Assembly: GCA_002787405.1 (NCBI GenBank)
Contig: PCWQ01000007.1
Coordinates: 31,296-95,295 of the forward strand
Source of the DNA: Candidatus Komeilibacteria bacterium CG11_big_fil_rev_8_21_14_0_20_36_20
GTDB taxonomy: Bacteria; Patescibacteriota; Patescibacteriia; UBA1558; GWA2-36-10
Direction of reading: 5' to 3'
Length of the DNA stretch: 64,000 nt
In this document: in pieces, positions 8,094-50,019 of the stretch
Layout of the letters: each line of letters begins with the position of its first letter
How positions within the stretch are numbered: the first letter of the stretch is position 1
The notes under the pieces: model-generated
Told to the model about the DNA's origin: nothing
The model's input: only the letters and a program-made list of their open reading frames with translations
Database searches by the model: none
Position numbers and translations under genes: made by a program

Positions 8094-9407
8094 TTAAGAC
8101 AATCTCTCGAAACTAGAATGCACCACTGGCCCTTCTAATAAATCATAAAGTTTATGTGATACAACCGCTTGCTCTAATAAATTACAAACCTTTTCTGCTG
8201 CCTTCACATATAATTTGGCATAATCTTCTGTGAGGCTATAACTAACATATATAGTAGCCGAAGCCAAAACGCCTCTTTTAAGCATTTCTTGAGTAAATAA
8301 GGTACGAATAGCTTGACTATCTTTACCATAATCAAAAAAAAGATGAATCAATGGCGGTAATCCACTAATCTTAAGTTTCAAACCGCTATTTTCAGCTGAT
8401 GTCTTTAATCCTTTTATTATTAAGCGTCCAATTTTATCAAGCTGTTTAGGGACATCTTTGTCTATCATCTTCTTAATGGTCGTTATAGCCGCCATTGGGC
8501 CAACCCTCTCTGTCCAATAAGAACTGCTAATAAATGAAGTTTGAGCCGCTTGCATAACATTCCTATTGCCAATAATAGCCGCCATTGGGAAACCATTGCT
8601 CATTCCCTTAGCAAAAACAGCTATGTCAGGATTTACGTCGTATTTTAGATGAGCACCCCCAACATTAAGACGCCAAGCAATGGTTACTTCATCAAAAATG
8701 AGAACCGCTCCAATTTTATCAGCCAGATTTCTTATTTTTTTTAAAAAATCATCCTCTGGCTCATCATTCCTTAAAGGCTCCATAACAATTGCGCCAATAT
8801 CATTGTTTTTTAAAACAATATCCTCTAACTCCTTTATTTTATTATAGTGAAAAGGGATCGCTGTGCCAGCCAGCCCTCTTGGCACGCCCCTTGGCTCTAA
8901 TCCTGCTAATAAATGCCCATCCAGATGTTTATCGTTAAATAAATTAGCAGCTAAATACCAATCATGCCAACCATGATAGCCACAAAAAGCAATCTTATCT
9001 TTCCCTGAATATGCCCGAGCGATTCTGACAGCTACTGCCATTGCTTCTCCGCCACCTCTGGTATATCTAACCATCTCGGCCCAAGGATGCAATTTACATA
9101 GCAACTTCGCCAATTCTACATCTTCAGGAGAATTGAGTGTACAGATAGAACCTGATCTAATTACTTTTTCTACTGCTTCATTGACATCTGGATCGGCATA
9201 ACCCAATATACAAGCACCGACGCTAGCATAAGTATCAATATATTCATTGCCATCTAAATCCCAAACTTTAACGCCTTCCGCTTTTTTAAAATAAGAAGGC
9301 CAATGTTCTGGCAAAAACATCTCTGAACGTTTTGATAGTAATTGTGTTCCACCTGGAATAATTTTCTTTGCTTCGTTCCATAATAGAACACCTTTTGTTG
9401 ACTTCAT
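8094..9407 (-). CDS. class III aminotransferase (glutamate-1-semialdehyde aminomutase-like)
   Basis: 437 aa. The N-terminus (IIPGGTQLLSKR...KAEGVKVWDLDGNEYIDTYASVGACILGY) matches HemL-type PLP-dependent enzymes. Confidence 0.8.
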   Translation of the reverse strand: MKSTKGVLLWNEAKKIIPGGTQLLSKRSEMFLPEHWPSYFKKAEGVKVWDLDGNEYIDTYASVGACILGYADPDVNEAVEKVIRSGSICTLNSPEDVELAKLLCKLHPWAEMVRYTRGGGEAMAVAVRIARAYSGKDKIAFCGYHGWHDWYLAANLFNDKHLDGHLLAGLEPRGVPRGLAGTAIPFHYNKIKELEDIVLKNNDIGAIVMEPLRNDEPEDDFLKKIRNLADKIGAVLIFDEVTIAWRLNVGGAHLKYDVNPDIAVFAKGMSNGFPMAAIIGNRNVMQAAQTSFISSSYWTERVGPMAAITTIKKMIDKDVPKQLDKIGRLIIKGLKTSAENSGLKLKISGLPPLIHLFFDYGKDSQAIRTLFTQEMLKRGVLASATIYVSYSLTEDYAKLYVKAAEKVCNLLEQAVVSHKLYDLLEGPVVHSSFERLS

Positions 9408-10254
9408 AGCTGTTTGTTTTAAGTATAAAATAATTTTCTAAAAATAAAGCATCTAGCTCAGTATTGTTAAAAAGATTTAATGCCTGCTCAGGATTCTCCA
9501 CAATAGGTTCTCCCCTACCATTCATTGATGTATTCATAACAAGAGGGATCCCTGTAATTTTGTAAAATTCTTTTATTAAATTGTAATATGATTCATTAAC
9601 ATCTTTTTTTACAACTTGTGGTCGCGTTGAATTATCAACATGTAAAGCCGCCGGAATTTTATCTTGCATATTATTTTGTATATATCTAGCAATAATCATA
9701 AAATCGGCACAATTGGGAATATAGCCCTGGAGATATTTATGTTTATATTCATCTAAAATTGATACAGCAAGTGGCCGCCACTGTTCTCTATATTTTATTG
9801 TATTCATTCTTTCTTTGTTTTTCTTTTTTGTTGGGTTTGATAAGATACTTCTGTTCCCTAAAGCTCTTGCACCAGCTTCCATTTTGCCATTAAACCAACC
9901 AATAACTTTATCCTCAGCGATTAACTTTGCTGCTTGCTTATATGGTTCTTTAAGATATTCAAATCTTAGACCCTTAGATTTTAGCATTTTTTCTATATAA
10001 CTATTACTATATTTAGTGCCATAATATAGATGGCGCATCTCTTCAAAATCATTCCTCCCAGTTTTTTCAACATATTTCAACATTGCTGAACCAATCATAC
10101 TACCATTATCTCCAGCTAAAGGCTGGATAAAAATATCTTGAATCAACCCTGACTCTAAGATTTTACTATTCATAACGCAGTTCATCGCCACGCCACCAGC
10201 TAGACATAAATTATTACTTTTAAATTTCCTTTTCCCTATTTTTATTAGAATCAA
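9286..10254 (-). CDS. carbamoyltransferase (NodU/CmcH family), C-terminal part of a gene split by a frameshift
   Basis: Contains NLCLAGGVAMNCVMN, typical of O-carbamoyltransferases. Reading on in the +1 frame from the upstream ORF across the T8 run at 10323..10330 gives an uninterrupted sequence. Confidence 0.75.
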   Translation of the reverse strand: MILIKIGKRKFKSNNLCLAGGVAMNCVMNSKILESGLIQDIFIQPLAGDNGSMIGSAMLKYVEKTGRNDFEEMRHLYYGTKYSNSYIEKMLKSKGLRFEYLKEPYKQAAKLIAEDKVIGWFNGKMEAGARALGNRSILSNPTKKKNKERMNTIKYREQWRPLAVSILDEYKHKYLQGYIPNCADFMIIARYIQNNMQDKIPAALHVDNSTRPQVVKKDVNESYYNLIKEFYKITGIPLVMNTSMNGRGEPIVENPEQALNLFNNTELDALFLENYFILKTNSYEVNKRCSIMERSKENYSRWNTITIKTFRDVFARTLAFLF

Positions 10255-10268
10255 TAATACTTCTTCAA

Positions 10269-11090
10269 CTAAATCCTGGACCGCATAAGCAAGATCAACA
10301 TATTTCTTATCAAAATTTTCTCTTTTTTTTCTTCTAAAATATCAATTGCAAATGTAGCTTTAATATAATTGAATCTATCTTTCCAAGACGATGCTAATTT
10401 CTTGTGTCTTATTTGATAACCACTTCTTCTAAGTTTCATTATTTTTTTATCAAATAACTTTTTTATTTTTTTATCATAATTTCCATAAGCAGATAGTCCC
10501 ATAGTTTGACCTTCACCACTTATTGGTTTAAAACCTAGGAATCCTGTTATATCGGTATATATTTCTCCAATCGAATTAGGCCAATCAAATACTTTAATTT
10601 CTTTGAGCTTACCCTCCACTCCTTTAAAAATAACGGAAGATTCTTTTTCGCCAGCTCCATCTACTGTAATAACCAATGATTCATCAAACCCACTCAAATA
10701 GTAAGCTGATGCGGCGTGTGATAAGTGATGATTATAAAATGTAATTGGTGGCATTTTTAAATTACCAAATTTTAATTTAAGTTGATCATATATAATATCT
10801 TTTGCCTCTAATATCACCTCGCTATGTTTTAATCCTTTTTGTTTTACAAAAGGCCATTGTGTGGGTTCAAAAGGAATGGTGATATAATCTATATCAGATA
10901 AAGTTAAATTATTCATATTAAGTGTTATACTAATAGCATTAATAGGAAATTGTCCTTCTGCGTGCTTAACCCTAGTAAATCTTTCCTCTTCTAAAATTGA
11001 TATAATTTTGTTATCTTCCAATAAAATTACCGCCCCATCGTGAGTTCCAAAATAAGGTGGTATGCTTGGTTTAAAAGATAAAATTTTCAT
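10269..11090 (-). CDS. carbamoyltransferase (NodU/CmcH family), N-terminal part of a gene split by a frameshift
   Basis: The N-terminus reads MKILSFKPSIPPYFGTHDGAVILLEDNKIISILEEERFTRVKH, as in the carbamoyltransferase N-terminal domain. With 9286..10254 the total is about 595 aa, a normal size for the family. Confidence 0.75.
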   Translation of the reverse strand: MKILSFKPSIPPYFGTHDGAVILLEDNKIISILEEERFTRVKHAEGQFPINAISITLNMNNLTLSDIDYITIPFEPTQWPFVKQKGLKHSEVILEAKDIIYDQLKLKFGNLKMPPITFYNHHLSHAASAYYLSGFDESLVITVDGAGEKESSVIFKGVEGKLKEIKVFDWPNSIGEIYTDITGFLGFKPISGEGQTMGLSAYGNYDKKIKKLFDKKIMKLRRSGYQIRHKKLASSWKDRFNYIKATFAIDILEEKKEKILIRNMLILLMRSRI

Positions 11091-11106: not shown

Positions 11107-11948
11107 ATTAAAATTTATTATATATTTTTTTCTTTCTGCAATAACCATAAAAGTATAGCTTTTTGTATATGTAATCTATTTTCAGATTGATTAAAAATAA
11201 TAGAATTATCGTGATTAATTGCATCACGAGAAATTTCATATCCTATTAACTTTACCATCAGTAAAAAATTCCATATTCATCCAAGTATCTGTATGTATAT
11301 AATTAACATCTTTTAATGCCTCTTGTAAATCTAGTGTTCTAATAACTAACCCAGTTGATTCAGCTTGTTTATTAAGCTTTGCATCAATGCTGCTTTTATC
11401 TGCTTTAGGGGAAACAATTATAAATTGAATGCCTAATTTTACACAGGCTAACATTAAAGTATTTGATACATTATTTTCAATCCCTAACCAAGCTACTCTT
11501 TTAATTTTATCTACCCCTTGGAATGCTCTGCCATAGTTAATATATCACTCAAGGCTTGGGAAGGATGATATTTTTCACTACATCCATCAATAACTGGAAT
11601 TTGATTATGCTTAGCAGCACTCAAGATATCATCTGTATTCACGGCACGAAACATTAAAATATCGCCAAAATTCATCATTGATTTTATTTCATCATTGAAA
11701 TCTGTTATAGAAAACTGAGTTGTTCGTATATCTATAAAAATAGCGTGACCACCTAGTTCGGTCATGGCTGTCTCATAAGACAATCGAGTTCTTGTAGATG
11801 TTTTTTGAAATAACATGAGTAAGGTTTGATTATGTAAATAATCTGGCAAATAATTTTTCTTTCTTTGCTTTTTTAATTTTTGTGCTAAAGTTAATATAGA
11901 TAAAATATCTTCCTTGCTTTGCTCTTTAAGAGAAATTAAATGTCTCAT
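11107..11948 (-). pseudogene. ornithine/aspartate carbamoyltransferase-like gene disrupted by at least two frameshifts
   Basis: STRTR and HPSQ motifs are found in ORF 11511..11948. The polypeptide continues in other frames (KIKRVAWLGIENNVSNT...VSP, then ISRDAINHDNSIIFNQSENRLHIQKAILLWLL). The HCLP active-site motif is replaced by EFFT. Confidence 0.65.
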
Positions 11949-14986: not shown

Positions 14987-16417
14987 TTATCTTTTCATGA
15001 CTAATTTTAAATAATGCATAATATAAATAAAGCTATCTTTAGTGTTTTTCACTTCATATTTTAAATTCCTTCTAATAGATGGCACGTCTTTGATTATTAA
15101 AAAAATTCTATTTGGCGGCAATTTAATCAATAAATTTACTAGCCATTTCAAATTCGGGAAACGAATTAAAAGATAACATAATTTATCTAAATTTATTAAT
15201 TGTCTTATATTATCCTGTTTTATAAGCGAATTATTGCTATCGGCGGTTGAACCAGCATTTTTGTAGGTAATTATATCTTTAAGATAATTATTATCAAGGC
15301 AATAATTCCCTATCTGAGTTTTAGGATAAGGTACCAAGACATTAGAGTTAATATCATCTAAATCAAGCTGCCTACATAAATTTATAGTCTCATAAGCATT
15401 ATCCATAGTTTCTCCTGGCCAGCCAAATATAATATCTGCGCCTATTCTAATTTGATATTTTTTTAACAGTTGACAAGCTGCTATTATTTGCTTATTGCTC
15501 ATGTTACGATTTAATAGCTCTTTTCTTAAAGTTTCATTGCCAGTTTGGATACCAATAACAAGCTTATCGCAACCAGCTTTTTTTAAAAGAGCAATATATT
15601 CTTCACTAATATCTTCAACTCTGGCATAAATTATAAATCCTGGCAATTTTTTTTCTATGTACAATTTCAAAAACTCTCTTACTTGTTCTAATTTTACATT
15701 AAAAGTTGCATCTTGAAACCTAGCCCATTTCAAACCATATTTATCTTTAACATATAATAGCTCCGCTATGAGCTTTTGAGGCGAATATAAGCGAAAATGA
15801 GTCCCGCCTCCATCCCTATAAAATTGATTTATCCAATTAGTATAGCAATAGGAACATCGAAAAGGGCAACCTCGTGATAAAATGAACGGTTTTGTCTCTA
15901 ACTTTCTTAATTTCTCATATTTCTTAAAATAAATATCTCTATCAAAAGAAGGTAAATGTTCTATATTATTAACATATGCTATGGCTGTATTTTTTTCCAC
16001 TTGTCCATTTTTCTTAAACCAAATTCCTGGAATATTGAAAAAATTTTCTTTCTTGTCTAGTCGATTTAAAATTTCTAGACAAGCTAACTCGCCGTCACCC
16101 ACACACATTAAATCTATACAATCCTCATTAACTATTTCCGGAAAAACTAAAGTAAATGCCCCGCCAATTAAAGTTAAAATATCTTTATTTATCTTCTTTA
16201 TCTCTCTCAAAATTGCAAGAACATCTTCCTGCTCTCCGATACATAAACTACAAGCAACTATATCGGGCTTAAAATTCATTACTGATTCGTAAAAACTATC
16301 TTCTTCCTCTAAACAAAAAACATCAACTACATGACCATGCTCCTTCAAAACTGAAGATATGGCCATGACGCCTAAATTTTCTAACAAGATATGCTGAAGA
16401 AAAGCAATTCTGGCCAT
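14987..16417 (-). CDS. cobalamin-binding radical SAM enzyme (class B radical SAM)
   Basis: An N-terminal B12-binding-like domain precedes the radical SAM motif CPFRCSYCY. The start codon overlaps the stop of the upstream paralog. Confidence 0.8.
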   Translation of the reverse strand: MARIAFLQHILLENLGVMAISSVLKEHGHVVDVFCLEEEDSFYESVMNFKPDIVACSLCIGEQEDVLAILREIKKINKDILTLIGGAFTLVFPEIVNEDCIDLMCVGDGELACLEILNRLDKKENFFNIPGIWFKKNGQVEKNTAIAYVNNIEHLPSFDRDIYFKKYEKLRKLETKPFILSRGCPFRCSYCYTNWINQFYRDGGGTHFRLYSPQKLIAELLYVKDKYGLKWARFQDATFNVKLEQVREFLKLYIEKKLPGFIIYARVEDISEEYIALLKKAGCDKLVIGIQTGNETLRKELLNRNMSNKQIIAACQLLKKYQIRIGADIIFGWPGETMDNAYETINLCRQLDLDDINSNVLVPYPKTQIGNYCLDNNYLKDIITYKNAGSTADSNNSLIKQDNIRQLINLDKLCYLLIRFPNLKWLVNLLIKLPPNRIFLIIKDVPSIRRNLKYEVKNTKDSFIYIMHYLKLVMKR

Positions 16418-18150
16418 TAAAGAGCCCCCCCTTCCAACAAATTCAATTCCTTGTTTATATCAATTTTAAAATGCTTAAAATAACTTCTAGAAGTCTCACT
16501 TGTCTTTAATATATCTTGAGCTTTATGCCAATTATCTTTAACCTTTAATAAATCCCCTTTGATTTCATACGCTTTGCCGAGAACATAATAAGCAATCGCA
16601 TGATCTGGTGCTAATTCAATCACTCCTTTAAAATCTCTAATTGCCTGATCTACTCTATCAGAATTTAAATTTCTGGAATTTATAAAATTGACCTCGAGAT
16701 TGGCTAAATAATTTTTTTCCAAAATATATTCTTTAGAAAAATTTGGCCAATCTACATTACTTGTAACCAAGGGATACCCATATCTTATACTATCAGCCAC
16801 AATATATCCTTTCTGGAGACACTCTTCAAATATTCTTGACCCAGGAATTGCTTGATAATTCCTAATTAAAGCCCAATCTAGATCTAAAGATCGAGCAAAC
16901 TCCAAAGTTTCTTCAACTTCTTTTTTAGTTTCAAAATGAAAACCCGAAATAAAAAAACCAATAATATAACCCTTGCCTAATTTTCTTATTCTTCTAACAA
17001 CATTTTTTGATATCTCTAAATTTAACACTTTGCCAATTTCTTTAAGTGTTTTCTGGCTGCCAGATTCAAAAGCAAGATTAAAGATAGCTATGCCACTATC
17101 ATACATCTTTTTTATTATTTCTTCATCTAGAAAATTTACACCTAAACCTCCTCCAACTCCCCAGCGAATATTCAAACCTCTTTTGATTATTTCATCCATA
17201 ATAGCCACAGCTTTTTTGGTGCTAACTGTAAAATTATCATCATTAAAAACTATTGCATTAACACCATATTCCTTAATAAGTAATTCTATCTCATCTACCA
17301 CATTTTTGGAATTACGATAACGTATTGATCTACCCCAAATGTGTTTTGCTGAACAAAAAGAACAAGAATATGGACAGCCTCGAGAAGCAGTCATAATGCC
17401 TATTTTAGCATTGTTACGACCTAAAACACGAAAGAGAAAATTTCTGCTTAAATTTCCATATTCTGAAAAATCATTGGGCATAATATAGTCATCCGGCGAT
17501 ATGTTAGTTCTGTCAGGAAAAGGCAACTCGTCTAAATTTTTGATTAAAAATTTATTTTCTTTAAATATAATATTTTTATCATCTCTATAAGCTATTCCAT
17601 GCAAATTTTCTACTCCTTTTTCTTTATTTAAAAAAAGAATTAAATCCATAAAACAAATCTCACCTTCTCCAATTATTGCATAATCTATATTATTATCTTT
17701 TAAAGCATCTGAATAAGAAATTGTAGGATAACTGCCGCCTATGACAGTGATTATGTCTGGTGATATTTTCTTTATAAGTGTACATGTTTGATGAACAATA
17801 TGTGATGTAGAATGAAACAAAGAACTCACTCCTATAATATCTGGGGAAACTTCTTCTATTTTATCTTTTAATAAACCCCAAGCTGCAGACATATCAACCT
17901 TCCCCTTAGAAATAAAATGCTTCATAGCCATTAAATTAGCATCAAAAATTTCAATCTCTACATCATTAATCTTACTTTGCAGATAAGAAGAAATATAACC
18001 AAGACCCAGTGGTGACTCTGCAAACTGACCACCAGATATTACCGTCTCGTAATTATAAGAATTGGTCTCTATAATAAATGGATTTATTAATAAAATTTTC
18101 TTGACTCTAGGCATAATTTTTATATAGTTTTTTTGATTTCCAGACAGCAT
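16417..18150 (-). CDS. cobalamin-binding radical SAM enzyme with a C-terminal TPR-like extension
   Basis: A B12-binding-like N-terminal domain precedes CPYSCSFCS. The C-terminal roughly 100 aa are TPR-like. Confidence 0.8.
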   Translation of the reverse strand: MLSGNQKNYIKIMPRVKKILLINPFIIETNSYNYETVISGGQFAESPLGLGYISSYLQSKINDVEIEIFDANLMAMKHFISKGKVDMSAAWGLLKDKIEEVSPDIIGVSSLFHSTSHIVHQTCTLIKKISPDIITVIGGSYPTISYSDALKDNNIDYAIIGEGEICFMDLILFLNKEKGVENLHGIAYRDDKNIIFKENKFLIKNLDELPFPDRTNISPDDYIMPNDFSEYGNLSRNFLFRVLGRNNAKIGIMTASRGCPYSCSFCSAKHIWGRSIRYRNSKNVVDEIELLIKEYGVNAIVFNDDNFTVSTKKAVAIMDEIIKRGLNIRWGVGGGLGVNFLDEEIIKKMYDSGIAIFNLAFESGSQKTLKEIGKVLNLEISKNVVRRIRKLGKGYIIGFFISGFHFETKKEVEETLEFARSLDLDWALIRNYQAIPGSRIFEECLQKGYIVADSIRYGYPLVTSNVDWPNFSKEYILEKNYLANLEVNFINSRNLNSDRVDQAIRDFKGVIELAPDHAIAYYVLGKAYEIKGDLLKVKDNWHKAQDILKTSETSRSYFKHFKIDINKELNLLEGGAL

Positions 18151-28017: not shown

Positions 28018-28728
28018 TCATGGACGTTCAATAGATCTTAAATAATTTGAACATTCTTCATTGTCAATGTTATCTAATTTAAGTTTACCGTCCGTTTTTT
28101 CAAAAAGATATTCCTCTACTTCCTTATAATATCTATGCCATTTATCATAAAATTTCTGATCTTTAGGAACCTTTGCTTTATTTTTGTCTCGTGCTTCTTC
28201 AAGAGAAACTACATTAACATTTCTTACTCTAGCATCAGAATAGGCTATTATAAGTTGTTCTAGGGGTATCTCATCAATTGCTTTACTTCGTGCCTCATTA
28301 TCTTCAATATAAATTTCAGGTACTCGACCTGCATATGAAGCAGTTTGTATGAATTGTTCTGAATAACCAGCCTGTTCTAGTAAAATTGTAAGTCGACCCT
28401 CTTTTTTTTCAGTATCGTATCTAACATCCCTTTCTATATCTATCCTTTTACTGACATCATGTAAAATAGCAGCTGACTCAACTAGTTCTGGATCAATGTC
28501 TTGGCCAGCTGTTTTTAATTTTTCTGCTAAAAATCCGGCTAAAGAACTAACCACCATAAGATGTTCTGTAACATTACGCCAATCCTTATTATCTTTTCCT
28601 AAGAGTCCGGCCTTTTTAATAACTCTCATTTCTTTCATATGCCTCTTAGCAAAGCTATCCCAAGTCTTTATTTTTTCTTTTTCCCCACCAGTAAATTGAG
28701 TAGTATCTATATTAAATTTTTCTGGCAT
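28018..28728 (-). CDS. HD-domain phosphohydrolase
   Basis: The segment VTEHLMVVSSLAGFLA...AAILHDVSKR fits an HD motif. Confidence 0.55.
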   Translation of the reverse strand: MPEKFNIDTTQFTGGEKEKIKTWDSFAKRHMKEMRVIKKAGLLGKDNKDWRNVTEHLMVVSSLAGFLAEKLKTAGQDIDPELVESAAILHDVSKRIDIERDVRYDTEKKEGRLTILLEQAGYSEQFIQTASYAGRVPEIYIEDNEARSKAIDEIPLEQLIIAYSDARVRNVNVVSLEEARDKNKAKVPKDQKFYDKWHRYYKEVEEYLFEKTDGKLKLDNIDNEECSNYLRSIERP

Positions 28729-28806
28729 AGATTATTTTGTTTCATGATACATATAATTATATTAGACGGTATCATATTAAAATTGAATTTTTATTCCTTT
28801 TATTAT

Positions 28807-28818
28807 CCCCCCCCCCCC
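28807..28818. repeat. C12 homopolymer tract (G12 on the coding strand) about 80 nt upstream of the HD-domain gene start
   Basis: Twelve consecutive C residues were counted directly in a region that is otherwise about 25% GC. Confidence 0.9.
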
Positions 28819-28864
28819 TCTTATTCCAAATATAGTTTTTTACTTCATCATCATTAAAAAAATT

Positions 28865-29968
28865 TTAATTTTTCTGACTATAGTATTCATAATATTTACT
28901 AACTGTCTTATACCAAGAAAATCTACTGGCAAATTCTTGAGAATGATGTTTCCACTGCTCTTGATCTGATGCTAACACTTTTATAATTTTATCATAGATA
29001 TCATTAGGTTGTCTCTGCTCGGCCAGATATCCGTTATAGCCATTCTGCAAAGCGTCTTCTATCCCACAATTTTTACTGCCAATGACTGGTAAACCAAAAG
29101 TTGCAGCCTCCAAAAAGACCAAGCCGAATCCTTCAAAATAATCACCGTTATTAACTGAAGTCATAATAAAAACATCAGATCTTTGATAAAAAAAAGATAA
29201 AACCTTGTCGCTCGCTTTATTGATGATGATGACATTATCAGAAATTTTATTGTTATGGCAATATTTCTTTATCTTATCAACATATTTTTTGTCAGCATCA
29301 GAACCGATGATAAAGTATCTAAAATCAGGATATTTTGATTTTAATTGCGTTATAGCTTGTAAACTATAATACTGGCCTTTTCTGCTCTTGATGGCGCCGA
29401 CTGTCAAAAATACAGGATAATGGTCTTTCAGCTTGTATTCTATTTTAAATTTACTTACCTCTTCATCAGACAATAAATTTAATCTCGTGGCACCCAACAA
29501 GACAGTTAATAAATTAGATGGTTTTAGCTTTTCTGATATTTTCTTTTTGGTGTAATCACTAATGCAAAAAATTTTTTCTGCCCTGATGAATGCTTTTTTC
29601 ATCAACCATTTTTTGCATTTAAAGTTAAACGGATCCACCGAATAAGTGCCTACACCACTAATAAATAATTTTTTATTCCTCCCTAAGGAGGAAAAGTAAC
29701 CATAAACGGCATAAGGCCAACCATCAAAGGCATGAATAATATCAAAGTCTTTGGCTAGTTTTCTGACTTTGAAAATATTACTTATTAATTTAAAAACGGA
29801 AATAGTGGGAGATAAAATATTCAGTTCATTGCTCTGATTGCTCCCTTTTTCCGTCACTACTTTATAGACCAGACCAAACTTAAGATACTCCTTAAGAATT
29901 GAAGAAGAATATCTGCCCCAACCGGATTTATTATTTATATCATGAGTAATAACTAGAATTTTTATCAT
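28865..29968 (-). CDS. family 4 glycosyltransferase
   Basis: A GT4 C-terminal motif reads EGFGLVFLEAATFGLPVIGS. Confidence 0.8.
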   Translation of the reverse strand: MIKILVITHDINNKSGWGRYSSSILKEYLKFGLVYKVVTEKGSNQSNELNILSPTISVFKLISNIFKVRKLAKDFDIIHAFDGWPYAVYGYFSSLGRNKKLFISGVGTYSVDPFNFKCKKWLMKKAFIRAEKIFCISDYTKKKISEKLKPSNLLTVLLGATRLNLLSDEEVSKFKIEYKLKDHYPVFLTVGAIKSRKGQYYSLQAITQLKSKYPDFRYFIIGSDADKKYVDKIKKYCHNNKISDNVIIINKASDKVLSFFYQRSDVFIMTSVNNGDYFEGFGLVFLEAATFGLPVIGSKNCGIEDALQNGYNGYLAEQRQPNDIYDKIIKVLASDQEQWKHHSQEFASRFSWYKTVSKYYEYYSQKN

Positions 29969-29992
29969 AATCTTTTTATCTATTGTAACTCA

Positions 29993-30254
29993 TCAGGTTA
30001 TAAAATCTATTATCTGTTTGGCTCGCTCCAACCAAGTATACTTTTGAACTTTAGAATAAGCTTTATCAGATAATTTCTCTCTTAAATCAGGATTAGGATT
30101 ATCTAATAGAAATTTAATCTGCTTGGCTAAATCTGCAGGATCATCCGGCTGTCAGAAAACCATTGGCCAATGGTGTCTGGCCTAAATCTAAAATTTTAAC
30201 TAAATCTTTTGAACCACATATTCTACAATCATCCTTATGTATATAATTCCTCAT
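29993..30254 (-). pseudogene. gene remnants: the N-terminal 35 aa of a sugar C-methyltransferase (TylCIII/TcaB9-like zinc ribbon) abutting the C-terminal roughly 50 aa of a GT4
   Basis: Minus-strand translation gives MRNYIHKDDCRICGSKDLVKILDLGQTPLANGFLTAG followed by a stop. The next frame reads DDPADLAKQIKFLLDNPNPDLREKLSDKAYSKVQKYTWLERAKQIIDFIT, homologous to the C-terminus of the GT4 at 31673..32863. Confidence 0.6.
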
Positions 30255-30264
30255 AGTTAATTAT

Positions 30265-31128
30265 CTAGTATCTAAGTAATTTTAAAGTAGGAAGCCACTC
30301 TTCTCTAAGATATTCTTCTAATGCTTTTTGCCAATCTCTGGCTAAATCAAAACGTTTTGAGACCATACTTTCGTTCATACCTCTTTGCGCTGGTAAATTG
30401 AAATAACTTGAATCCACTGGCATTACTTTGACATCTTTCCCCAGCACTTCAATAATTTTCACTACCATATCATAACGTGAACATACGCCTTTATTGCTAA
30501 GATGAAAAATTCCTTTAGCATCTTTTTTTATGAGGTATTTTAAATGATTTATCAAATCTTTACCAAATGTCGGCGAGATAAATGAATCGTTAATCGCTTT
30601 TATCTCCTGACAATCTTTTTTCTTAAGCTGATTAATTATTTTACTGACAAATTTCTGATCTTTCTTGGGGCCACCTCCAAAAACTCCACATACTCGAGCA
30701 ATAATATAATCATCTGAAATGTCCCTCACTACAACTTCTCCGATATATTTTGACCGTCCGTAAAAATACTGTGGATTAGTTTTATCATCCTCACTATAAG
30801 GATCCTTGCTAAATCCGTCAAATACCGCTGAAGTAGAAACATAGACCATCTTTGCTCCTACTTTTTGAGCGGCTACCGCCACATTATAAGTGCCGATTGC
30901 GTTAACAAAATAAGCATACATAGGGTCTCTTTCACATCTATCAACATCTGTCTCAGCCGCTAAATGTATAATTGCTCTTGGTTGGTATTGATCAATAATT
31001 TTCATTGTCTCCATAAGATCAGTCACATCAAGCAAACGTTTATTTACTTTGATACCAAAATCCACATAAGACCCCACCATGCCATTGGCACCGGTAATAA
31101 CAGTTTTATCTAAAATATTATCATCCAT
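30265..31128 (-). CDS. NAD(P)-dependent sugar reductase/epimerase (RmlD-like)
   Basis: An N-terminal Rossmann motif reads VITGANGMVGSYV. 287 aa, SDR fold. Confidence 0.65.
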   Translation of the reverse strand: MDDNILDKTVITGANGMVGSYVDFGIKVNKRLLDVTDLMETMKIIDQYQPRAIIHLAAETDVDRCERDPMYAYFVNAIGTYNVAVAAQKVGAKMVYVSTSAVFDGFSKDPYSEDDKTNPQYFYGRSKYIGEVVVRDISDDYIIARVCGVFGGGPKKDQKFVSKIINQLKKKDCQEIKAINDSFISPTFGKDLINHLKYLIKKDAKGIFHLSNKGVCSRYDMVVKIIEVLGKDVKVMPVDSSYFNLPAQRGMNESMVSKRFDLARDWQKALEEYLREEWLPTLKLLRY

Positions 31129-31142
31129 AATTATTCAATTAA

Positions 31143-31598
31143 TTATCTATTTTTAACCTGCCAATCAAAACCAATCTCCTTAGAATCATAAGGAATACGA
31201 TGTTCATCAGGATTGTCGGCGTCATAACGCTCGGTGGTATGATAAAACAATCCAACTTTCTTATTACCTAAAACACTATAACCATGCGCTACCCCTTTGG
31301 GTATATAGATTAAGACCGGATTGTCTTCTCCAGCGCAAATCACCTGTGTCTCCCCTTTAGTTTTTGATTTATCTCTCAAATCATATAAAACAACCTTGGC
31401 CATGCCTCGAGAAACAAACCAGATATCATCTTGCTTTTTATGATAATGAAAGGCCTTAATAACACCAGGATGCGTCTCGGTATAGGAAGTTTGTTTTATG
31501 ACAGAAAAAAATGGATCATCCGAGGCCAATATTTCAGCAAAAAATCCTCTGTCATCACAATATTTGACTATTTTCTTTATTTGTACGCCATCTATCAT
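31143..31598 (-). CDS. dTDP-4-dehydrorhamnose 3,5-epimerase-like cupin (RmlC family)
   Basis: An RmlC-like pattern is present (DDRGFF...HYHKKQDDIWFVSRG...PKGVAHGYSVL...Y). Confidence 0.7.
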   Translation of the reverse strand: MIDGVQIKKIVKYCDDRGFFAEILASDDPFFSVIKQTSYTETHPGVIKAFHYHKKQDDIWFVSRGMAKVVLYDLRDKSKTKGETQVICAGEDNPVLIYIPKGVAHGYSVLGNKKVGLFYHTTERYDADNPDEHRIPYDSKEIGFDWQVKNR

Positions 31599-31672
31599 AA
31601 TTTATGTTTTAATTTATTTAATTCATATAAACATTAACAATTATAAACCCAAAAGACAAATATGACAACCAA

Positions 31673-32863
31673 TTATGACACAAAATCTACTATCTTGTCC
31701 ACTCTGTTCTGCCAAGTATAATTCTGCACCTTATTATAAGCTTGCTTGGCTATTTTTTCACTTAACATGTCATCATTGAGCACTACTTTAATTTTCTCAG
31801 CCAAATCTTTTGGATTATCCGGTTGGAAGAAAACACAGTTTTCTGAATCCAAAACTTCTCTGGCGCTAGGCAAATCAGAGCTGACAATTGGTCTTTGCAT
31901 CGCCATATATTCAAATAACTTCAAAGGTGAAGTATATAATCTTGAAATATCATTTTTCGCAGAATTAGGCAACACCAAAATATCAGCCGCTCTCAAATAT
32001 AAAGGCACCTCCTCATGGGGCTTGCGTCCAGCTATTAAAATATTTTTATGCTTATTATTTTTTTCCTTAAATTTTATAATATCTTCATCTGTACCTCCAA
32101 GAAAAATAATTAATTCCTTTTCTGACAAAAAACCTGCTGCGTCCGCTAAAATCTGCGCGCCCTTCCAGTCATATAAATGTCCCGAATAAAGAATTACTTT
32201 TTTATCTAGTGGAAATTTTAATAAACTTCTTATTTCTTCTTTACTTTTTTGATCACCTGAAAATAGTTCTAAATCCACTCCATCCGGAGCAACAATTATT
32301 TTATCTCTACTTAATCCTAAATTAATCAATTCACTTTTTAAACCATTACTAATCGTGATAATACCCGCGCACTTCTTCCAGTATTTTAAATAATACTTAT
32401 GATGTTGCGGTAAATCATGACACTCCCAATAAACTTTACTGGAAAATAATTGCAACACCGGCAATAAATATTCATCTCGTGTATAAAATATTTTATCTTT
32501 CTTATTTTTCAAAAAAATAAAATAGAAAAATAATCTTACAATAAAAAATAAGGATTGAAACTTTATATAGGTGCCCGCTGGAAATTTTAAAAGAAAACGC
32601 GGATCAATCGTCCAAAGTTTTCTAATTTTAAAATTTTCTTCAATTTTATAATAATCAAAAATATTCTCTTTACTAAAAGATGGATTTTTTCTTTTTGGCA
32701 AAATTAATGTCAAATCAATATTTCGAACAGCAAAAAGATGGCACATTTTTAATATCTGTAAACCATGCGCCTTCTCTGTGGGAATTCTTGAATTTGCTAT
32801 GTATAATAATTTCACCGCGCTAGAAATTTCACTTTTATTACTTCTTATTTTTTCCATAGTCAA
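31673..32863 (-). CDS. family 4 glycosyltransferase
   Basis: A 396-aa GT4-like protein whose C-terminus ([13 protein letters not shown]) is shared with the remnant at 29993..30157. Confidence 0.75.
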
Positions 32864-37954: not shown

Positions 37955-39057
37955 AATTTAACAATCTGTTCTGTATTATCACTAAATTTTTCCCTCATTA
38001 ACTGACGCCCGTTTTCTCCTAGGCGCTCTGCTTCGGTTGGAGAATTTAATAAATATAAAATTTTATCAGCCATAGCTTGAGCGTCTCCGATCGGCACCAG
38101 CCAGCCGTTATAACCATCTCGCACTATTTCTTTGGCTCCGGTGGTGGCGGTTGCCACAACCGGCTTGCCACAGGCGTTGGCCTCCACTAATACTTTGCCG
38201 AAACTTTCAGAATCTGATGACAAAACAAACAAATCACAATTTCTATATTCTTTCGGTAAATCATCATGATCTTTGGCTCCTAATAATTCTATATAATCTA
38301 AACCAGCTGTTAATTTTTTTATTTTATCTTTTTCAGGCCCCGCACCAGCAATACGAAGTATGATATCCTTTCTTTTCTTATAAACAATCTCTATTGCTTT
38401 TATTAACAAAGGAATATTTTTAACTATTACCAATCGTCCTACCGAAAGAATAATTTTTTTATCTCTACTTTGTTTCTTTTCTACAGGTAAAGAAAACTTC
38501 TGTAAATCAACGGGCGTGGGGATTACTCGAATTTTATTTTCTCTAAGGCCAAAATTAATTAGCTTATCCTTAATGCCTTGACTCATTACCCGAATAGCGT
38601 CCGCTTGCCTAACGACCTTCTGGCCTAAAATCAATAACAAGCGATTATACCAATCTTCTCTCAGCCATAGTTTGTTGTCAAAAAAATCTCCGTGAAAATG
38701 GATTAACAACTGACAATTAAATTTTTTCTTCACCAAAGTGCCAACCAATCCTGTCAAAAAAGGATCCTGCGTCAAAACTAAATCAATTTTATTTTGTAAA
38801 CAAATATTCTTAGCAATCTTCCAGGCATCCCACAAAAAATTTATCTGATTAGCCGAATTAGTCGGATAAACAAAAACATTATGAGATAATTTTTTATTTT
38901 TTAAATTTAAACTTTTCTTAGCATAAGTAATAGAATGAATACTGTTAACATATTTACCATATTCTATATTGCGAATCTGCGCATCACCAAAATCCGGCTG
39001 ATTCATTGCCAAAGTCGGATCCCAGGAAACAGTCAAAATGTTAATTGCTCTAGCCAT
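37918..39057 (-). CDS. family 4 glycosyltransferase
   Basis: The GT4 motif reads FGKVLVEANACGKPVVATATTGAKEIV. Confidence 0.8.
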   Translation of the reverse strand: MARAINILTVSWDPTLAMNQPDFGDAQIRNIEYGKYVNSIHSITYAKKSLNLKNKKLSHNVFVYPTNSANQINFLWDAWKIAKNICLQNKIDLVLTQDPFLTGLVGTLVKKKFNCQLLIHFHGDFFDNKLWLREDWYNRLLLILGQKVVRQADAIRVMSQGIKDKLINFGLRENKIRVIPTPVDLQKFSLPVEKKQSRDKKIILSVGRLVIVKNIPLLIKAIEIVYKKRKDIILRIAGAGPEKDKIKKLTAGLDYIELLGAKDHDDLPKEYRNCDLFVLSSDSESFGKVLVEANACGKPVVATATTGAKEIVRDGYNGWLVPIGDAQAMADKILYLLNSPTEAERLGENGRQLMREKFSDNTEQIVKFWEDIIEQKLPR

Positions 39058-40493
39058 TATGTTTTTCTAATAAGATTATAAATTTTTCTTAAAGCTTTAC
39101 CTAAAACGCCTTTCTGCTCAATGGCGATGCCTGATAAATATTCCACAGCGTAAATATCAAGGGCTAAGCCAAAAAAACGATGACGGATCCTCCACTCAAA
39201 CCAGCTGATCACTGGACCTAATCTCCAATTTAAAAATTTAAAATATTCCCGAATGCGCCAGACCTTTTTAACGTCAGTCCAAGGCGATTCAAAATTCTTG
39301 CGAAAACGATCTATTTTGCCCCAATCCTCGGTTCTGGTTGGCGGCTGAAAACCGCTTTCTATGGCAAAATCATACATTTTTGAACCAGGATAAGGCAAAT
39401 AAGCCCCAAGGGTAAAAACGGCCTGCGGATGAATTTTATAGATTTGATACAATAAATCAATAGTTGACTCAAACTCTTCTTCGGTCTCTGTCGGCAGTCC
39501 AACAATCACCGAATAGCTGGCCGGCAAATCGTATTTTTTTAAGATTTTCACTGCTTCAATTATTTTGTCTGTCGTGAATTTTTTGTCTATTAACTTCAAT
39601 AAACGGTTACTGCCAGATTCAACGCCAATAAGCATATCAAACACCCGATACTCTTTTAATTTCGCCGCTACCTCATCATTAATGGAATCAATCCTAATCT
39701 CCAGATGGGAAGGCAGATTAATGCGTTCTAATATTTCCAGAGCCCGATACTTATTAACAAAAAAATTATCATCATAAAATTTAATGGCGTCAATATTGTA
39801 TTTTTCTTTTAAAAAGTTAATATCCTCAACCACCGCATCAATAGACCAAGTGCGCCATTTATTTTTATTAAAGGCATTATTATAACAAAAAGCACAATTA
39901 AAAGGACAACCGCGGGAACTTTTATAAGCAATCGCCCTTTTATACTTTCCTAAAGGGAAAATAAATTTAGACATGTCAATTAAAGAAAAATCTAAACGGT
40001 ATTGATCAAGATTTTCTATAAAAGGCCGCCAAGGATTAATCACCGGCTGATTATTCTTTTTATAACCAACGCCCAACACTCCTTCCATTTCTTTCTGATC
40101 TACAATCCGCTGGGTAAACTCAACCACACTGATTTCACCCTCGGAAATAATAACATAATCAATATAATCTTCCTGCAGACATTGTTCTGGTAAAAGTGAA
40201 GGATGGATACCGCCCCACAAAACAGGAATGGAACTTTTGGCTTTAATCCTTTGTGATAACTCGGCGCTGTGTTGAGTTTGGATACCGGTCATGATCGACA
40301 AACCAAAATATAACGGCTTTTCTTTAACAATATAATCAGCCGTGTCATTAATTTCTTTTTCAGTAATATTAATCAACTCTACCGTAAAACCTGCTTCTTT
40401 TAGAGCACTGCCCACGCATAAAATCCCCATTGGCAGAATCTTCTCTGAATGATCTTGACTATAATTAATTTGCGCTAAAATAATCTTAGGCAT
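39057..40493 (-). CDS. cobalamin-binding radical SAM enzyme
   Basis: A B12-binding-like N-terminal domain is followed by CPFNCAFCY. Confidence 0.8.
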   Translation of the reverse strand: MPKIILAQINYSQDHSEKILPMGILCVGSALKEAGFTVELINITEKEINDTADYIVKEKPLYFGLSIMTGIQTQHSAELSQRIKAKSSIPVLWGGIHPSLLPEQCLQEDYIDYVIISEGEISVVEFTQRIVDQKEMEGVLGVGYKKNNQPVINPWRPFIENLDQYRLDFSLIDMSKFIFPLGKYKRAIAYKSSRGCPFNCAFCYNNAFNKNKWRTWSIDAVVEDINFLKEKYNIDAIKFYDDNFFVNKYRALEILERINLPSHLEIRIDSINDEVAAKLKEYRVFDMLIGVESGSNRLLKLIDKKFTTDKIIEAVKILKKYDLPASYSVIVGLPTETEEEFESTIDLLYQIYKIHPQAVFTLGAYLPYPGSKMYDFAIESGFQPPTRTEDWGKIDRFRKNFESPWTDVKKVWRIREYFKFLNWRLGPVISWFEWRIRHRFFGLALDIYAVEYLSGIAIEQKGVLGKALRKIYNLIRKT

Positions 40494-40498
40494 ATTCT

Positions 40499-41941
40499 CT
40501 ACTTGGTGACAAATTTCTTAGCTAGTTTAAATTCTAATGGAAAAGCAAAAAACTTTAATTTCCATCTCAACTTGCATAAGAGCACAAAAACTAATTTAAT
40601 CAATTTTTGCGCCTTAATGCTGGAGCCCATCGCGCTACTGATACTATGCGCGCCAAATCTAACATAGGCCTCCATTGATTCCACAAAATCTTTATGCTTG
40701 ACCCAAGGAAAATTTTGGACAGTTAAATAACTTAATTCATTTTCTACTAAGTGCGCCCATGCTTCTGAGTTTTGTGGAGCTTTCCAGCCAGCGGCCAAAC
40801 ATTCCTGATATAATTCTGATCCAGGATATGGCCGAAAAGCTTGTGGGCCTAAAATCTGCACTTTATTATCTAATTTAATCAACTTGTCAATCAAATCCAA
40901 GGTCATTCTCATATCTTTTTTGGATTCACCGGGCAAACCAATCATAAAAGAATATTGCGGGATAATATCATATTTTAAACACATCTTAGCTGAATGTAAA
41001 ATTTCCGCCGGTGTAATATCTTTTTTAATTTTTTTTAAGATAATCGGACTACCTGACTCCGCGCCAAAAGATAATAAATAACAACCTGACCTTTTCAGTT
41101 TTGCCATTAACTGATCATCAATCCTTCCTTCTCTAATATAATTAGCCCTGACTGTTGTTTCCCAAGGAATAGTTAATCCTTTTGCAATCATACCTTCGAT
41201 AATTTTCTTTGATCTTTCAATATCCACAAAAAAATTTTCGTCCCAAAAACGCAATCTCTTACCTTTAAAATAATCTTTCTCCTTAATTATTTTGATATCT
41301 TCCAAAACCTGCCCCACTGTGCGATATCTCCACCTATTCTTCAAAATGGCATTAATACAAAAAGTACATCTGTGTGGACATCCTCTCGAAGTTAAAGAAG
41401 GAATGATATCTAATTTATACAAAATACTCTTAGGCATTAGATCCCATTTAAATAAAGGCATCTTGGCCGGATCATGTAATTCCTGAGGCGGATTAATAAC
41501 AATGCTGCTATCTTTATAGGCAATGCCTTGAATTTTATTTAAATCCTTATGACTGGCGATCTCATACAAAGTATGTTCTCCCTCACCCACACAAACAATA
41601 TCCACTAAGGGATGGTCAATGGTCTGCTCAACAAAAAATGTTGGGTGCGAGCCCCCCCAAATAATCGTGCAGTCTGGCTTAATATCCTTAATAAATTTAC
41701 TAACTTCCAAAGCATTGGAAATTTGAGTGGTCATCACGGAAATGCCAGCATAATCACAGTCAACAATCTTTTCTTTTATTAAATCAAAATAATTCTTTTC
41801 ACGAGCACCATCAACAATCTCCACCGGCATGTCTTTACTATTCAAATAACTAGCTAAACTTAACAAGCCAACCGAAATTGAGCTGTCATAATTTTCTTTG
41901 GCAATATTAAAAGGTGGATTGATTAATAAAACTTTACTCAT
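40499..41941 (-). CDS. cobalamin-binding radical SAM enzyme
   Basis: A B12-binding-like N-terminal domain is followed by CPHRCTFCINA. Confidence 0.8.
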   Translation of the reverse strand: MSKVLLINPPFNIAKENYDSSISVGLLSLASYLNSKDMPVEIVDGAREKNYFDLIKEKIVDCDYAGISVMTTQISNALEVSKFIKDIKPDCTIIWGGSHPTFFVEQTIDHPLVDIVCVGEGEHTLYEIASHKDLNKIQGIAYKDSSIVINPPQELHDPAKMPLFKWDLMPKSILYKLDIIPSLTSRGCPHRCTFCINAILKNRWRYRTVGQVLEDIKIIKEKDYFKGKRLRFWDENFFVDIERSKKIIEGMIAKGLTIPWETTVRANYIREGRIDDQLMAKLKRSGCYLLSFGAESGSPIILKKIKKDITPAEILHSAKMCLKYDIIPQYSFMIGLPGESKKDMRMTLDLIDKLIKLDNKVQILGPQAFRPYPGSELYQECLAAGWKAPQNSEAWAHLVENELSYLTVQNFPWVKHKDFVESMEAYVRFGAHSISSAMGSSIKAQKLIKLVFVLLCKLRWKLKFFAFPLEFKLAKKFVTK

Positions 41942-45142: not shown

Positions 45143-46342
45143 ATGCCTAATCTTAGCAAAAAAGATAAATTAAAAAACCAAAAAATCCTCTTCTTAATCA
45201 CCCAAACTAAGTGGGGTGGAGCCCAGAAGTATGTTTTAGAATTGGCTGAATACTTTAGCCAAAACAATGAAATTCACCTGACCTATGGAGAAACTGATAA
45301 TATTAACCAGCAGTTTCTAAATTATTGTAAAGAATTAAAAATCAAAACCATACCAATCCCCACTTTACACAGGAAAATAAATTTTACCAAAGATTTCCTA
45401 GCCATAGTCGATACGCTCAAAATTTTGAATAAAGAAAATTATAATTTAATTCACCTCAATAGTTCTAAAGCTAGTTTTGTCGGCAGCGTGGCTGCTAAAA
45501 TGTACAGCTATAACCCAGCCAACACAAAAACGCGGGTTGTTTACACGGCTCATGGCTTTGTCTTCAATGAACCATTGTCTAAAATAAGAAAAAAGGCATA
45601 TATCTTTTCAGAAAAAATAGCGGCTGCTTTTCAATATTTAATCATTGCTGTTTCTGAAACCGACCGGCAAAGTGCTATTGACCAGCAAATATGTAATCCT
45701 AATAAAATTTTCACCGTGCACAACGGCTTGAATTTTGATAAATATAATTTTTATAGTAAAGAAGAAGCCAGAAATAAATTAAATTTATCAGCAGATAAAA
45801 AATATTTTGGCACGATTGCCAGCTTTTATGAAACTAAGGGCTATGAATATTTAGTAGAAGCCATTAAAATACTGCGAAATAAACAGTCTCAAATCTTAAA
45901 AAATTATCAGTGGGTCTTAATTGGTGAAGGACCAAATCTAGAAAAAATAAAAAAACAAGTCGCAGACAATAATTTGTCTCCCTACATTAAATTTATTCCT
46001 GCTCAAGATAATGACTGGAAATTTTTAAAAGCTTTTGACTGTTTTATTTTGCCTTCAATCAAAGAAGGCCTGCCTTATACTATTCTGGAAGCTGGCTTAG
46101 CTCAAATTCCGATCATTGCCACCAAAGTTGGCGGTCTTCCTGAAATCATTACCAATGAAAAAACCGGCTTATTGATAACGCCGGCTAATCCTCTCTCTTT
46201 AGCGCAAGCTATGGAAAAAATGTCTCAAGATCATGATCTCTCTGAAAAATTTGCAGAAAGCAACTATCAAAATATTAAAAATAATTTTAATCTCCAAAAT
46301 ACTTTAGATAAGACTGAAGAACTATATTTAAAATTATTTTAA
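45143..46342 (+). CDS. family 4 glycosyltransferase
   Basis: EGLPYTILEAGLAQIPIIATKVGGLPEII. This is the only plus-strand gene in the right half of the cluster, divergent from 43926..45068. Confidence 0.8.
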   Translation: MPNLSKKDKLKNQKILFLITQTKWGGAQKYVLELAEYFSQNNEIHLTYGETDNINQQFLNYCKELKIKTIPIPTLHRKINFTKDFLAIVDTLKILNKENYNLIHLNSSKASFVGSVAAKMYSYNPANTKTRVVYTAHGFVFNEPLSKIRKKAYIFSEKIAAAFQYLIIAVSETDRQSAIDQQICNPNKIFTVHNGLNFDKYNFYSKEEARNKLNLSADKKYFGTIASFYETKGYEYLVEAIKILRNKQSQILKNYQWVLIGEGPNLEKIKKQVADNNLSPYIKFIPAQDNDWKFLKAFDCFILPSIKEGLPYTILEAGLAQIPIIATKVGGLPEIITNEKTGLLITPANPLSLAQAMEKMSQDHDLSEKFAESNYQNIKNNFNLQNTLDKTEELYLKLF

Positions 46343-46908
46343 CCTTCGAGGTCGATTTCAACTAATCTTCTGATATAAACATCTAAATTCTTAGTATACT
46401 CTTGAAAGTCAACTAGATAATCCTGGTTGACTAATTTAAATTTTGCTCGATGAATATAATCATAATGGGAGCTGTAGAGCCAATCATTAATATTCTTTGT
46501 TAACTTATGTTTAAGCGGATTTAGATTAATATAACTAATGACAGTCTCAAGATAATTATCATCTTCGACAAGTTTAGACTTAAATGAACCCGCAAAAATT
46601 CTCCCTGAATGCTCTTTATGTATATTAAAATATTTACTATAAGAATTAGATAAAAGTGAAATAAAACGAGATATAGCTGATGATTCGACCTTCGAGGTCA
46701 AATCCGGCTCTTGCAATAGAAAATGCCAATGGTTGGGCATTACGCAATAAGCTAGAATTTTAACATGCGTTTTTTCTTTATAAAATAAAGCTTTTTCAAG
46801 AAAATAAGTATAATCTTGCTCCGTATAAAAAATAGTCCTTTTTTCCACCGCACGATTATAAATATGGTGGATAGTATTGGGGAAAAAATTTCTTGGTTTA
46901 TTAGGCAT
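46339..46908 (-). CDS. IS200/IS605-family Y1 (HUH) transposase-like protein, probably a REP-associated tyrosine transposase (RAYT)
   Basis: The HUH motif reads CVMPNHWHFLLQ. A C-terminal WLYSSHYDY (W-x-SS...Y) is present. 189 aa. The gene is flanked by palindromic repeats. Confidence 0.75.
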   Translation of the reverse strand: MPNKPRNFFPNTIHHIYNRAVEKRTIFYTEQDYTYFLEKALFYKEKTHVKILAYCVMPNHWHFLLQEPDLTSKVESSAISRFISLLSNSYSKYFNIHKEHSGRIFAGSFKSKLVEDDNYLETVISYINLNPLKHKLTKNINDWLYSSHYDYIHRAKFKLVNQDYLVDFQEYTKNLDVYIRRLVEIDLEG

Positions 46909-49314: not shown

Positions 49315-50019
49315 TTAAAAAGTATGCTCCGGGTCTAATTCTAAAATTTTGTTTTTATAATACTCGGCCTTATTGGCGTCTAGTTGTTTATCTTTAAAGA
49401 AATAATACAAATACTGGTAAAAATTAACATCCGACTGTCCGGCCGGCTTACTCATTCCATCCAACATAATAGTCTCTACTCTATAGGACTCTGCCGGTAA
49501 ATAAGTTTCGTATAAATCAGCATAAGAAACATAATAGTGATAATAGCCAATATTATCTTTGTTAATGGATAAATCAAAATAATAAGCAGCCTGATCATAA
49601 TCTCGGGCAAATGACTTGTAATAGTTGCCTAAATTGGAAAAAGCTAAAGGATTGATGGGATTTAAAACAGTGTCATATTTCCAGGCCTCTACCGCCCCCT
49701 CGAAATCCATCAAGCCAAGCTTAAGATTGCCGATTTCTATCCATAAATCATAAACATCATAGTCATCCGCCTGATGTAAATATCCATAATCATTATTCAG
49801 CCGGTCCACTAAGTTCTGGGTAGACTCTTCATCCATATCCGTATCAGGAAAATCACTAAGCTGATAAACATAATCAATCGGTGGTTGATTATTATTATTT
49901 TGACCTTGGTTGTTATTAGAACCAAAAATCAACCAAATAGCTAGGGCGATAACCGCCAAAATTAAAATAATAAAAAGATTTTTTTTATTCACCCTGTTAG
50001 AAATTTTAAGATTATTCAT
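49315..50019 (-). CDS. hypothetical membrane-anchored protein (N-terminal TM; Asn/Gln-rich linker; Tyr-rich TPR-like C-terminus)
   Basis: A 234-aa ORF with a single N-terminal hydrophobic helix. Confidence 0.4.
   Translation of the reverse strand: MNNLKISNRVNKKNLFIILILAVIALAIWLIFGSNNNQGQNNNNQPPIDYVYQLSDFPDTDMDEESTQNLVDRLNNDYGYLHQADDYDVYDLWIEIGNLKLGLMDFEGAVEAWKYDTVLNPINPLAFSNLGNYYKSFARDYDQAAYYFDLSINKDNIGYYHYYVSYADLYETYLPAESYRVETIMLDGMSKPAGQSDVNFYQYLYYFFKDKQLDANKAEYYKNKILELDPEHTF

Follow-up and report, generated by a model that had tools for sequence, protein, structure and literature searches.

The 296-bp gap between an RmlD-like reductase gene and the next GT4 glycosyltransferase gene in the genome of Candidatus Komeilibacteria bacterium CG11_big_fil_rev_8_21_14_0_20_36_20 probably holds a non-functional chimeric gene remnant created by one illegitimate recombination event. 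In its simplest form, this event would have deleted at least about 2.1 kb from within the locus, a minimum which assumes that the genes of a 409-aa methyltransferase and of a GT4 of about 375-395 aa were once adjacent. The missing domains and the frame offset between the two pieces suggest that the remnant has no functional product. All coordinates below refer to the window, which is the whole 64,000-nucleotide stretch analyzed here.

Two gene fragments in the gap

The gap extends from the stop codon of the RmlD-like gene (30265) to the start codon of the GT4 gene (29968), and it contains, read on the minus strand, the 5' piece of a methyltransferase gene and the 3' piece of a GT4 gene. The genes around it are intact and lie on the minus strand as well. 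The upstream neighbor of the scar encodes the RmlD-like reductase of 287 aa (30265..31128; PF04321, E=5e-62) and is the second gene of a conserved three-gene module. The first gene of the module encodes an RmlC-like cupin epimerase of 151 aa (31143..31598; PF00908, E=6e-21), which is 77-78% identical to the proteins of the relatives described below. A 396-aa GT4 is encoded at 31673..32863, and the downstream neighbor of the scar encodes a 367-aa GT4 (28865..29968; PF00534, E=3e-35). The genes flanking the 296-bp scar may still be co-transcribed across it.

A minus-strand ORF of 37 codons (30141..30254) encodes MRNYIHKDDCRICGSKDLVKILDLGQTPLANGFLTAG, followed by a stop codon. Its codons 1-35 (30150..30254) are the 5' remnant of a sugar C-methyltransferase gene, retaining the original ATG located 10 nt past the RmlD-like stop codon, and the homology to the syntenic 409-aa proteins extends through residue 35. 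The ORF ends because the methyltransferase frame continues into DNA of GT4 origin (30141..30149), where it reads Ala-Gly-stop out of frame. The zinc-binding N-terminal domain of sugar C-methyltransferases is described by PF08421 (Methyltransf_13), which the 37-aa ORF matched in Pfam with 38 bits (E=1.8e-9) over profile positions 1-27 of 62, above the gathering score of 31.3. This match, together with 80-91% identity to the first 35 residues of the methyltransferases in syntenic loci of six relatives, bears out the original prediction, which had placed a 35-aa methyltransferase N-terminus on this strand. Its description as a zinc-ribbon N-terminus holds for the start of a zinc-binding domain, but only half of the ribbon is there. 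The fragment keeps one of the two CxxC pairs, the first (C10 and C13), and the second (C53 and C56 in the relatives) lies beyond the junction, leaving the four-cysteine zinc site incomplete in the window. No SAM-binding Rossmann domain and no C-terminal Methyltransf_14 domain were detected in the gap by Pfam or by tblastn over the whole window, where a relative's 409-aa methyltransferase found a single matching spot with its residues 1-35 (E=8e-15). Judged by this domain content, the fragment is a remnant of 35 out of about 409 residues and no longer an enzyme.

The other piece (29993..30151, minus strand) comprises the last 52 codons and the TGA stop of a GT4 glycosyltransferase gene. Positions 30151..29996 encode QPDDPADLAKQIKFLLDNPNPDLREKLSDKAYSKVQKYTWLERAKQIIDFIT in the +1 frame, with the TGA at 29993-29995, and the downstream GT4 gene begins 24 nt past this stop. 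No start codon in the tail frame yields an ORF of at least 25 aa. The closest homologue of the tail within the window is the C-terminus (31676..31825) of the 396-aa GT4, with 25 of 52 residues identical (48%), 39 of 52 positive, and E=9e-14. The alignment runs end to end and both sequences stop at the stop codon, so that they are co-terminal. Their DNA identity of 66% over 159 bp points to an old paralogy and rules out a recent duplication.

Outside the window, the tail matched positions 100-144 of 144 of PF13524 with E=3.6e-4 and 20.9 bits, which is below the gathering score of 25 bits. Pfam found no PF00534 match in it; the catalytic Rossmann and N-terminal domains are gone. A filter-free phmmer search of the tail against 1.84 billion representative proteins gave 41 matches at E<=1e-3, all of them at or near the C-terminal end of the matched protein and many in proteins about 340-410 aa long. 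The tail shares 45-61% identity with the last ~50 residues of many such GT4s, and the best match (E=2.1e-8, 61% identity) is its closest homologue anywhere searched. All ten matches that we scanned were GT4 proteins (PF00534, PF13692 or PF13524). The predicted GT4 C-terminal tail of about 50 aa in another frame is thus found with a length of 52 aa, and at the family level both assignments were upheld, Methyltransf_13 above its cut-off and the tail by its matches to GT4 C-termini. By these scores, the homologies of both fragments are real and well beyond chance.

DNA alignments with the relatives and with the 3' end of the paralogous GT4 gene (31673..32863) locate the junction at 30149..30152 (minus strand). 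The methyltransferase sequence ends there with ACA (30152..30150), two nucleotides of which also belong to CAG (30151..30149), the codon that opens the tail. The break is thus sharp and can be placed to within about 2 nt of 30150. Compared with the methyltransferase frame, that of the tail is shifted by +1, and a TGA at 30154..30152 closes it upstream. In the alignment with three relatives, similarity is kept through the codon of Thr35 and gone right after it, the window reading ANGFLT followed by AG and a stop, and the relatives ANGFLT followed by KDEL. In the alignment with the paralogue, similarity begins at the junction, where the paralogue has GTTTTCTTCCAACCGGAT and the scar has GTTTTCTGACAGCCGGAT. 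If the lost parent GT4 was like its paralogue at this point, it may have shared with the methyltransferase an imperfect patch at the break, matching in 9 of 11 nt, which illegitimate recombination would lead one to expect. Over their 87 codons (35 + 52), the two fragments have accumulated no stop codon and no frameshift. The search for Rfam families, promoters, and terminators across 28700..31700 returned nothing beyond chance, including one terminator-like hairpin inside the methyltransferase fragment, compared with 1.2 expected.

Methyltransferase genes at the same position in relatives

The RmlD-like proteins nearest to that of the window in a collection of 5.8 billion proteins are 73-78% identical, with nothing between these and 100%. 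We fetched the genomic context of six distinct relatives (L019, L022, L025, L041, L044, and L045), all of which have an RmlC-like gene, an RmlD-like gene, and a gene for a 409-aa methyltransferase (PF08421 + PF13489 + PF08484) in this order, the methyltransferase gene being the immediate neighbor of the RmlD-like gene. The loci L019-L021, L022-L024, L025, and L044 share the arrangement rSAM-SPASM, RmlC-like (151 aa), RmlD-like, methyltransferase, and a 347-aa GT4. Past the 347-aa GT4, the loci L019/L020, L022-L024, and L025 continue with another GT4 and a B12-radical-SAM gene, in this order; the contigs L021 and L044 stop within or at the 347-aa GT4 gene. Convergent genes come after the three genes in L041 and L045. 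The RmlD-like gene is also followed by a 409-aa methyltransferase gene in a 63% relative (L042), and there is no methyltransferase after it in a 60% relative (L043).

The methyltransferase fragment is as conserved as the neighboring RmlC-like (77-78% identity) and RmlD-like (75-77%) proteins. The alignments of the full-length L019 methyltransferase with the solved structures of MtmC (4RV9, E=2e-78), KijD1 (5T64, E=2e-72), and TcaB9 (3NDI, E=1e-71) span the proteins from one end to the other, in agreement with the predicted TylCIII/TcaB9-type assignment; TylCIII is the namesake of the sugar 3-C-methyltransferase family. The intact-length genes of the six relatives make an ancestral methyltransferase at the position of the scar well supported, and with it the proposal that this locus once coded for a branched-sugar step after the RmlC-like and RmlD-like genes. 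Known enzymes of the TcaB9/TylCIII and RmlC/RmlD types indicate that an epimerase, a 4-ketoreductase, and a 3-C-methyltransferase convert an NDP-4-keto-6-deoxyhexose to a C-methyl-branched 6-deoxy-L-hexose. The product of the three-gene module is presumably such a C-methyl-branched deoxysugar.

The original prediction had envisaged an intact pair of methyltransferase and GT4 in syntenic loci, for which the relatives supply the methyltransferase but not the parent of the tail. The tail matches the C-termini of both GT4s located after the relatives' methyltransferase with nothing better than E of about 1, by which measure the GT4 following the methyltransferase in four relatives is not its parent. 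A parent gene was found in no relative, either in the syntenic loci, in the contexts of homologues, or by protein searches. Similarly, no relative was found with the presumed order before the event, namely methyltransferase, tail-parent GT4, and 367-aa GT4. With an identity of only about 25%, the 367-aa GT4 is no orthologue of the second GT4 (GTb) found in the relatives. Its nearest homologues are 57-63% identical and lie after a dehydratase/epimerase in unrelated clusters, where no GT4 bearing this tail stands beside them.

Two further searches were uninformative. The RmlD-like protein retrieved homologues of 30-37% identity from unrelated phyla in a genome collection and missed the source genome itself, so the search does not bear on synteny. 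A metagenome scan with the concatenated fragment and tail, which had relatives of 33-58% identity among the matches listed, missed the known scar-bearing JGI contigs and is thus uninformative on intact alleles.

The three-gene module recurs in groundwater contigs with flanks that vary from contig to contig, and its host glycan clusters are unusually rich in radical-SAM, B12-radical-SAM, and SPASM genes. In L045, whose RmlD-like protein is 73% identical to that of the window, the methyltransferase gene (L045:1316..2544) has full length but was called as two genes, since a T7 run around residue 152 contains one frameshift. This frameshift could mark an inactivation that arose independently or a homopolymer error in the sequence of a single contig.

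Origin of the junction

We propose that an ancestor of this Candidatus Komeilibacteria lineage would have carried genes for an RmlC-like epimerase, an RmlD-like 4-ketoreductase, and a 409-aa sugar 3-C-methyltransferase, and farther downstream a gene for a GT4 paralogous to the one at 31673..32863. A break past codon 35 of the methyltransferase would have been fused to the GT4 gene 52 codons ahead of its stop, the two frames being offset by +1. This joining would have removed the second half of the methyltransferase zinc site, the SAM-binding and C-terminal domains, and the entire catalytic core of the GT4, leaving over a 37-aa junk ORF and an untranslatable tail. We infer the single event, as well as the size of the deletion. 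A single deletion is the most economical reading since only one junction is needed. Because the parent of the tail was found in none of the relatives, one deletion of two adjacent genes stands as the most parsimonious account and is unproven; a larger deletion or a junction from recombinational replacement fits equally well. The predicted past deletion that removed most of two genes therefore holds insofar as most of both genes has been lost, whereas the single deletion is favored by parsimony only.

A replacement junction without any deletion in situ is rather unlikely in our estimate, even though it is the strongest of the other readings. A segment ending inside the 5' end of a methyltransferase gene could have recombined into a resident cluster, with the right crossover inside a resident GT4, or everything past codon 35 could have been exchanged for a foreign cassette starting inside a GT4. 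The lineage may then never have had a working methyltransferase beside this GT4. The distribution of similarity speaks for such an exchange: only RmlC, RmlD, and methyltransferase codons 1-35 closely resemble the relatives (77-91% identity), and the other genes of the window are at most 48% identical or absent. The junction thus coincides with the end of synteny, as it would at a cassette-replacement breakpoint. Two observations point in the same direction: the flanks of the three-gene module differ among the relatives, and the closest homologues of the 367-aa GT4 occur in unrelated contexts. However, replacement requires two illegitimate junctions, and nothing is seen of the left one in the 74 bp that precede RmlC. 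Furthermore, we found no compositional discontinuity across the junction in GC or GC3, also by comparison with the relatives (GC of 31-37% on both sides), and no mobile-element remnant at it.

It is highly improbable that the 37-aa ORF persists as a functional micro-protein, or that a +1 frameshift produces an 86-aa fusion of the methyltransferase N-terminus with the GT4 C-terminus. The retained start codon, the 35 + 52 codons free of stops, and the public record, where the ORF is called as the gene COV55_01000 for a "hypothetical protein", are compatible with a product. Yet the ORF covers only 27 of the 62 domain-profile positions with one of two zinc-site CxxC pairs, borrows its last two codons and stop from out-of-frame GT4 DNA, and is followed by a tail lacking a start codon; neither a slippery motif nor an RNA structure was found in 28700..31700. 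A word-indexed search with the 37-aa ORF, padded to 40 aa, against 5.8 billion proteins returned only itself. This search is insensitive at such a length and missed full-length relatives sharing long identical stretches, so it is no evidence of absence. COV55_01000 would accordingly be better annotated as a pseudogene remnant, next to a GT4 tail that is unannotated publicly.

The junction is reproducible across assemblies. Nine loci were fetched by way of the exact RmlD-like protein encoded on each contig, and all nine match the window in each of the 311 bases leading from the RmlD-like stop codon to the GT4 start codon. They come from NCBI, Logan, JGI, and ENA assemblies of at least eight samples, made with several assemblers. 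All nine contigs run unbroken from the RmlD-like gene into the GT4 gene at 29968..28865, several of them extending further on one or both sides, with a full-length identity to the window of at least 99.93%. Since the nine assemblies represent one strain, they attest to reproducibility and to fixation in that population, and leave the age of the scar unproven. The RmlD-like protein has not accelerated relative to an outgroup (59.5% mean identity vs 57-59.6% for the relatives), consistent with a fairly recent event, retained function, or both.

Assemblies do break nearby, at a 12-nt homopolymer (28807..28818, G12 on the minus strand) between the GT4 gene at 28865..29968 and an HD-domain gene. 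Three independent contigs end at precisely this tract, in place of which the stored NCBI copy shows a run of Ns; the tract could vary in length. Although the source is a metagenome-assembled genome and this homopolymer breaks several assemblies, an assembly or binning artefact, whether from two contigs joined into a chimera or from a collapsed region, has next to no probability given nine independent contigs with an identical junction.

The surrounding glycan cluster and comparison with known systems

The scar is part of a glycan supercluster spanning roughly 2.6-49 kb of the window, in which other genes, all on the minus strand, are decayed or unusual. With an intact 313-aa homologue from L026 as the reference, an ornithine/aspartate carbamoyltransferase gene (11133..11948) proves to be broken: one frame holds residues 1-145 and again 276-313, another holds 145-234, about 41 codons are missing, and only the 145-aa N-terminal ORF (11511..11948, PF02729) is open. 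A second carbamoyltransferase gene (9286..11090), whose counterpart in L026 encodes about 595 aa, is present as two ORFs that do not share a frame: 10269..11090 covers the N-domain, and 9286..10254 covers the end of the N-domain as well as the C-domain. Either a frameshift pseudogene or a sequencing error could account for the split. An IS200-like Y1 transposase ORF (46339..46908; PF01797, E=9e-10) lies between a GT4 gene and a Wzy_C-domain gene. The two carbamoyltransferase genes and the transposase fit an eroding, mosaic cluster. The claim that the cluster is actively being remodelled was overstated with regard to the scar, which is invariant in every assembly, but the other decayed genes are signs of ongoing erosion.

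Four B12-binding radical-SAM genes in two tandem pairs (14987..18150 and 39057..41941) among the glycosyltransferases suggest unusual radical modifications, possibly methylations, of the glycan. Two adjacent minus-strand ORFs, of 1267 aa (50191..53994) and 234 aa (49315..50019), have no Pfam match; an ECF-type sigma factor gene lies upstream of them, and a gene for a Wzy_C-domain protein of 757 aa lies beside them. The 144-aa ORF at 935..1369 and a few others also gave no Pfam match, and none of the checked ORFs of at least 110 aa contained an RmlA-type nucleotidyltransferase domain (PF00483) in Pfam.

The remnant indicates that this Komeilibacteria lineage descends from a maker of a C-methyl-branched 6-deoxyhexose. 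Its glycan would then have lost the branched sugar and one glycosidic linkage, and the RmlC-like and RmlD-like pair perhaps now makes an unbranched 6-deoxyhexose. Elsewhere, branched-chain sugars have been described chiefly in antibiotics of actinomycetes and in a small number of lipopolysaccharides. More tentatively, and with considerable doubt, the scar could record a recent population-wide switch of the surface glycan in a CPR episymbiont, with the trio of RmlC-like, RmlD-like, and C-methyltransferase genes acting as a portable cassette that has been repeatedly gained, moved, and inactivated. If so, Patescibacteria would decorate their glycans by means of this trio, and the frameshifted methyltransferase of L045 would be a second inactivated case. 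In itself, the scar is an ordinary pseudogene scar of a known type, implying no new mechanism or family; it offers an example, dated by synteny, of the erosion of a glycan cluster in a streamlined CPR genome.

Compared with the enzymes TcaB9, KijD1, and MtmC, the scar has the same zinc-domain start of the family but lacks the SAM-binding and C-terminal domains and half of the zinc ligands. Likewise, its tail is co-terminal with GT4 proteins of the GT-B fold (Glycos_transf_1 / Glyco_trans_1_2) but has neither their catalytic Rossmann domains nor a start codon. In the phase variation of Coxiella burnetii, a chromosomal deletion leads to the loss of an O-antigen with branched sugars (virenose and dihydrohydroxystreptose genes). 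The two cases are alike in that a deletion inside a glycan cluster removes the capacity for a C-branched deoxysugar; the deletion in Coxiella is much larger and has a demonstrated phenotype, whereas the phenotype of the scar is only inferred.

Gene remnants at recombination or deletion junctions are also well known from polysaccharide clusters, both O-antigen and capsule. In Salmonella, remnants of wzy lie between wbaV and wbaU in groups B1 and D1, and the intact wzy is found in groups B2 and D3 (PMC3715488). In E. coli, 9 of 178 O-antigen clusters contain gene remnants, which have been read as signs of relatively recent events (PMC7685785). Unlike these remnants, the scar belongs to an uncultivated groundwater CPR/Patescibacteria bacterium, and its two unrelated fragments, one of them from a parent gene found in no relative, abut directly with no IS or H-repeat remnant. 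Like them, it is a short, presumably non-functional piece of glycan-pathway sequence in a gap between intact flanking genes, and its methyltransferase fragment has intact counterparts at the corresponding place in related clusters.
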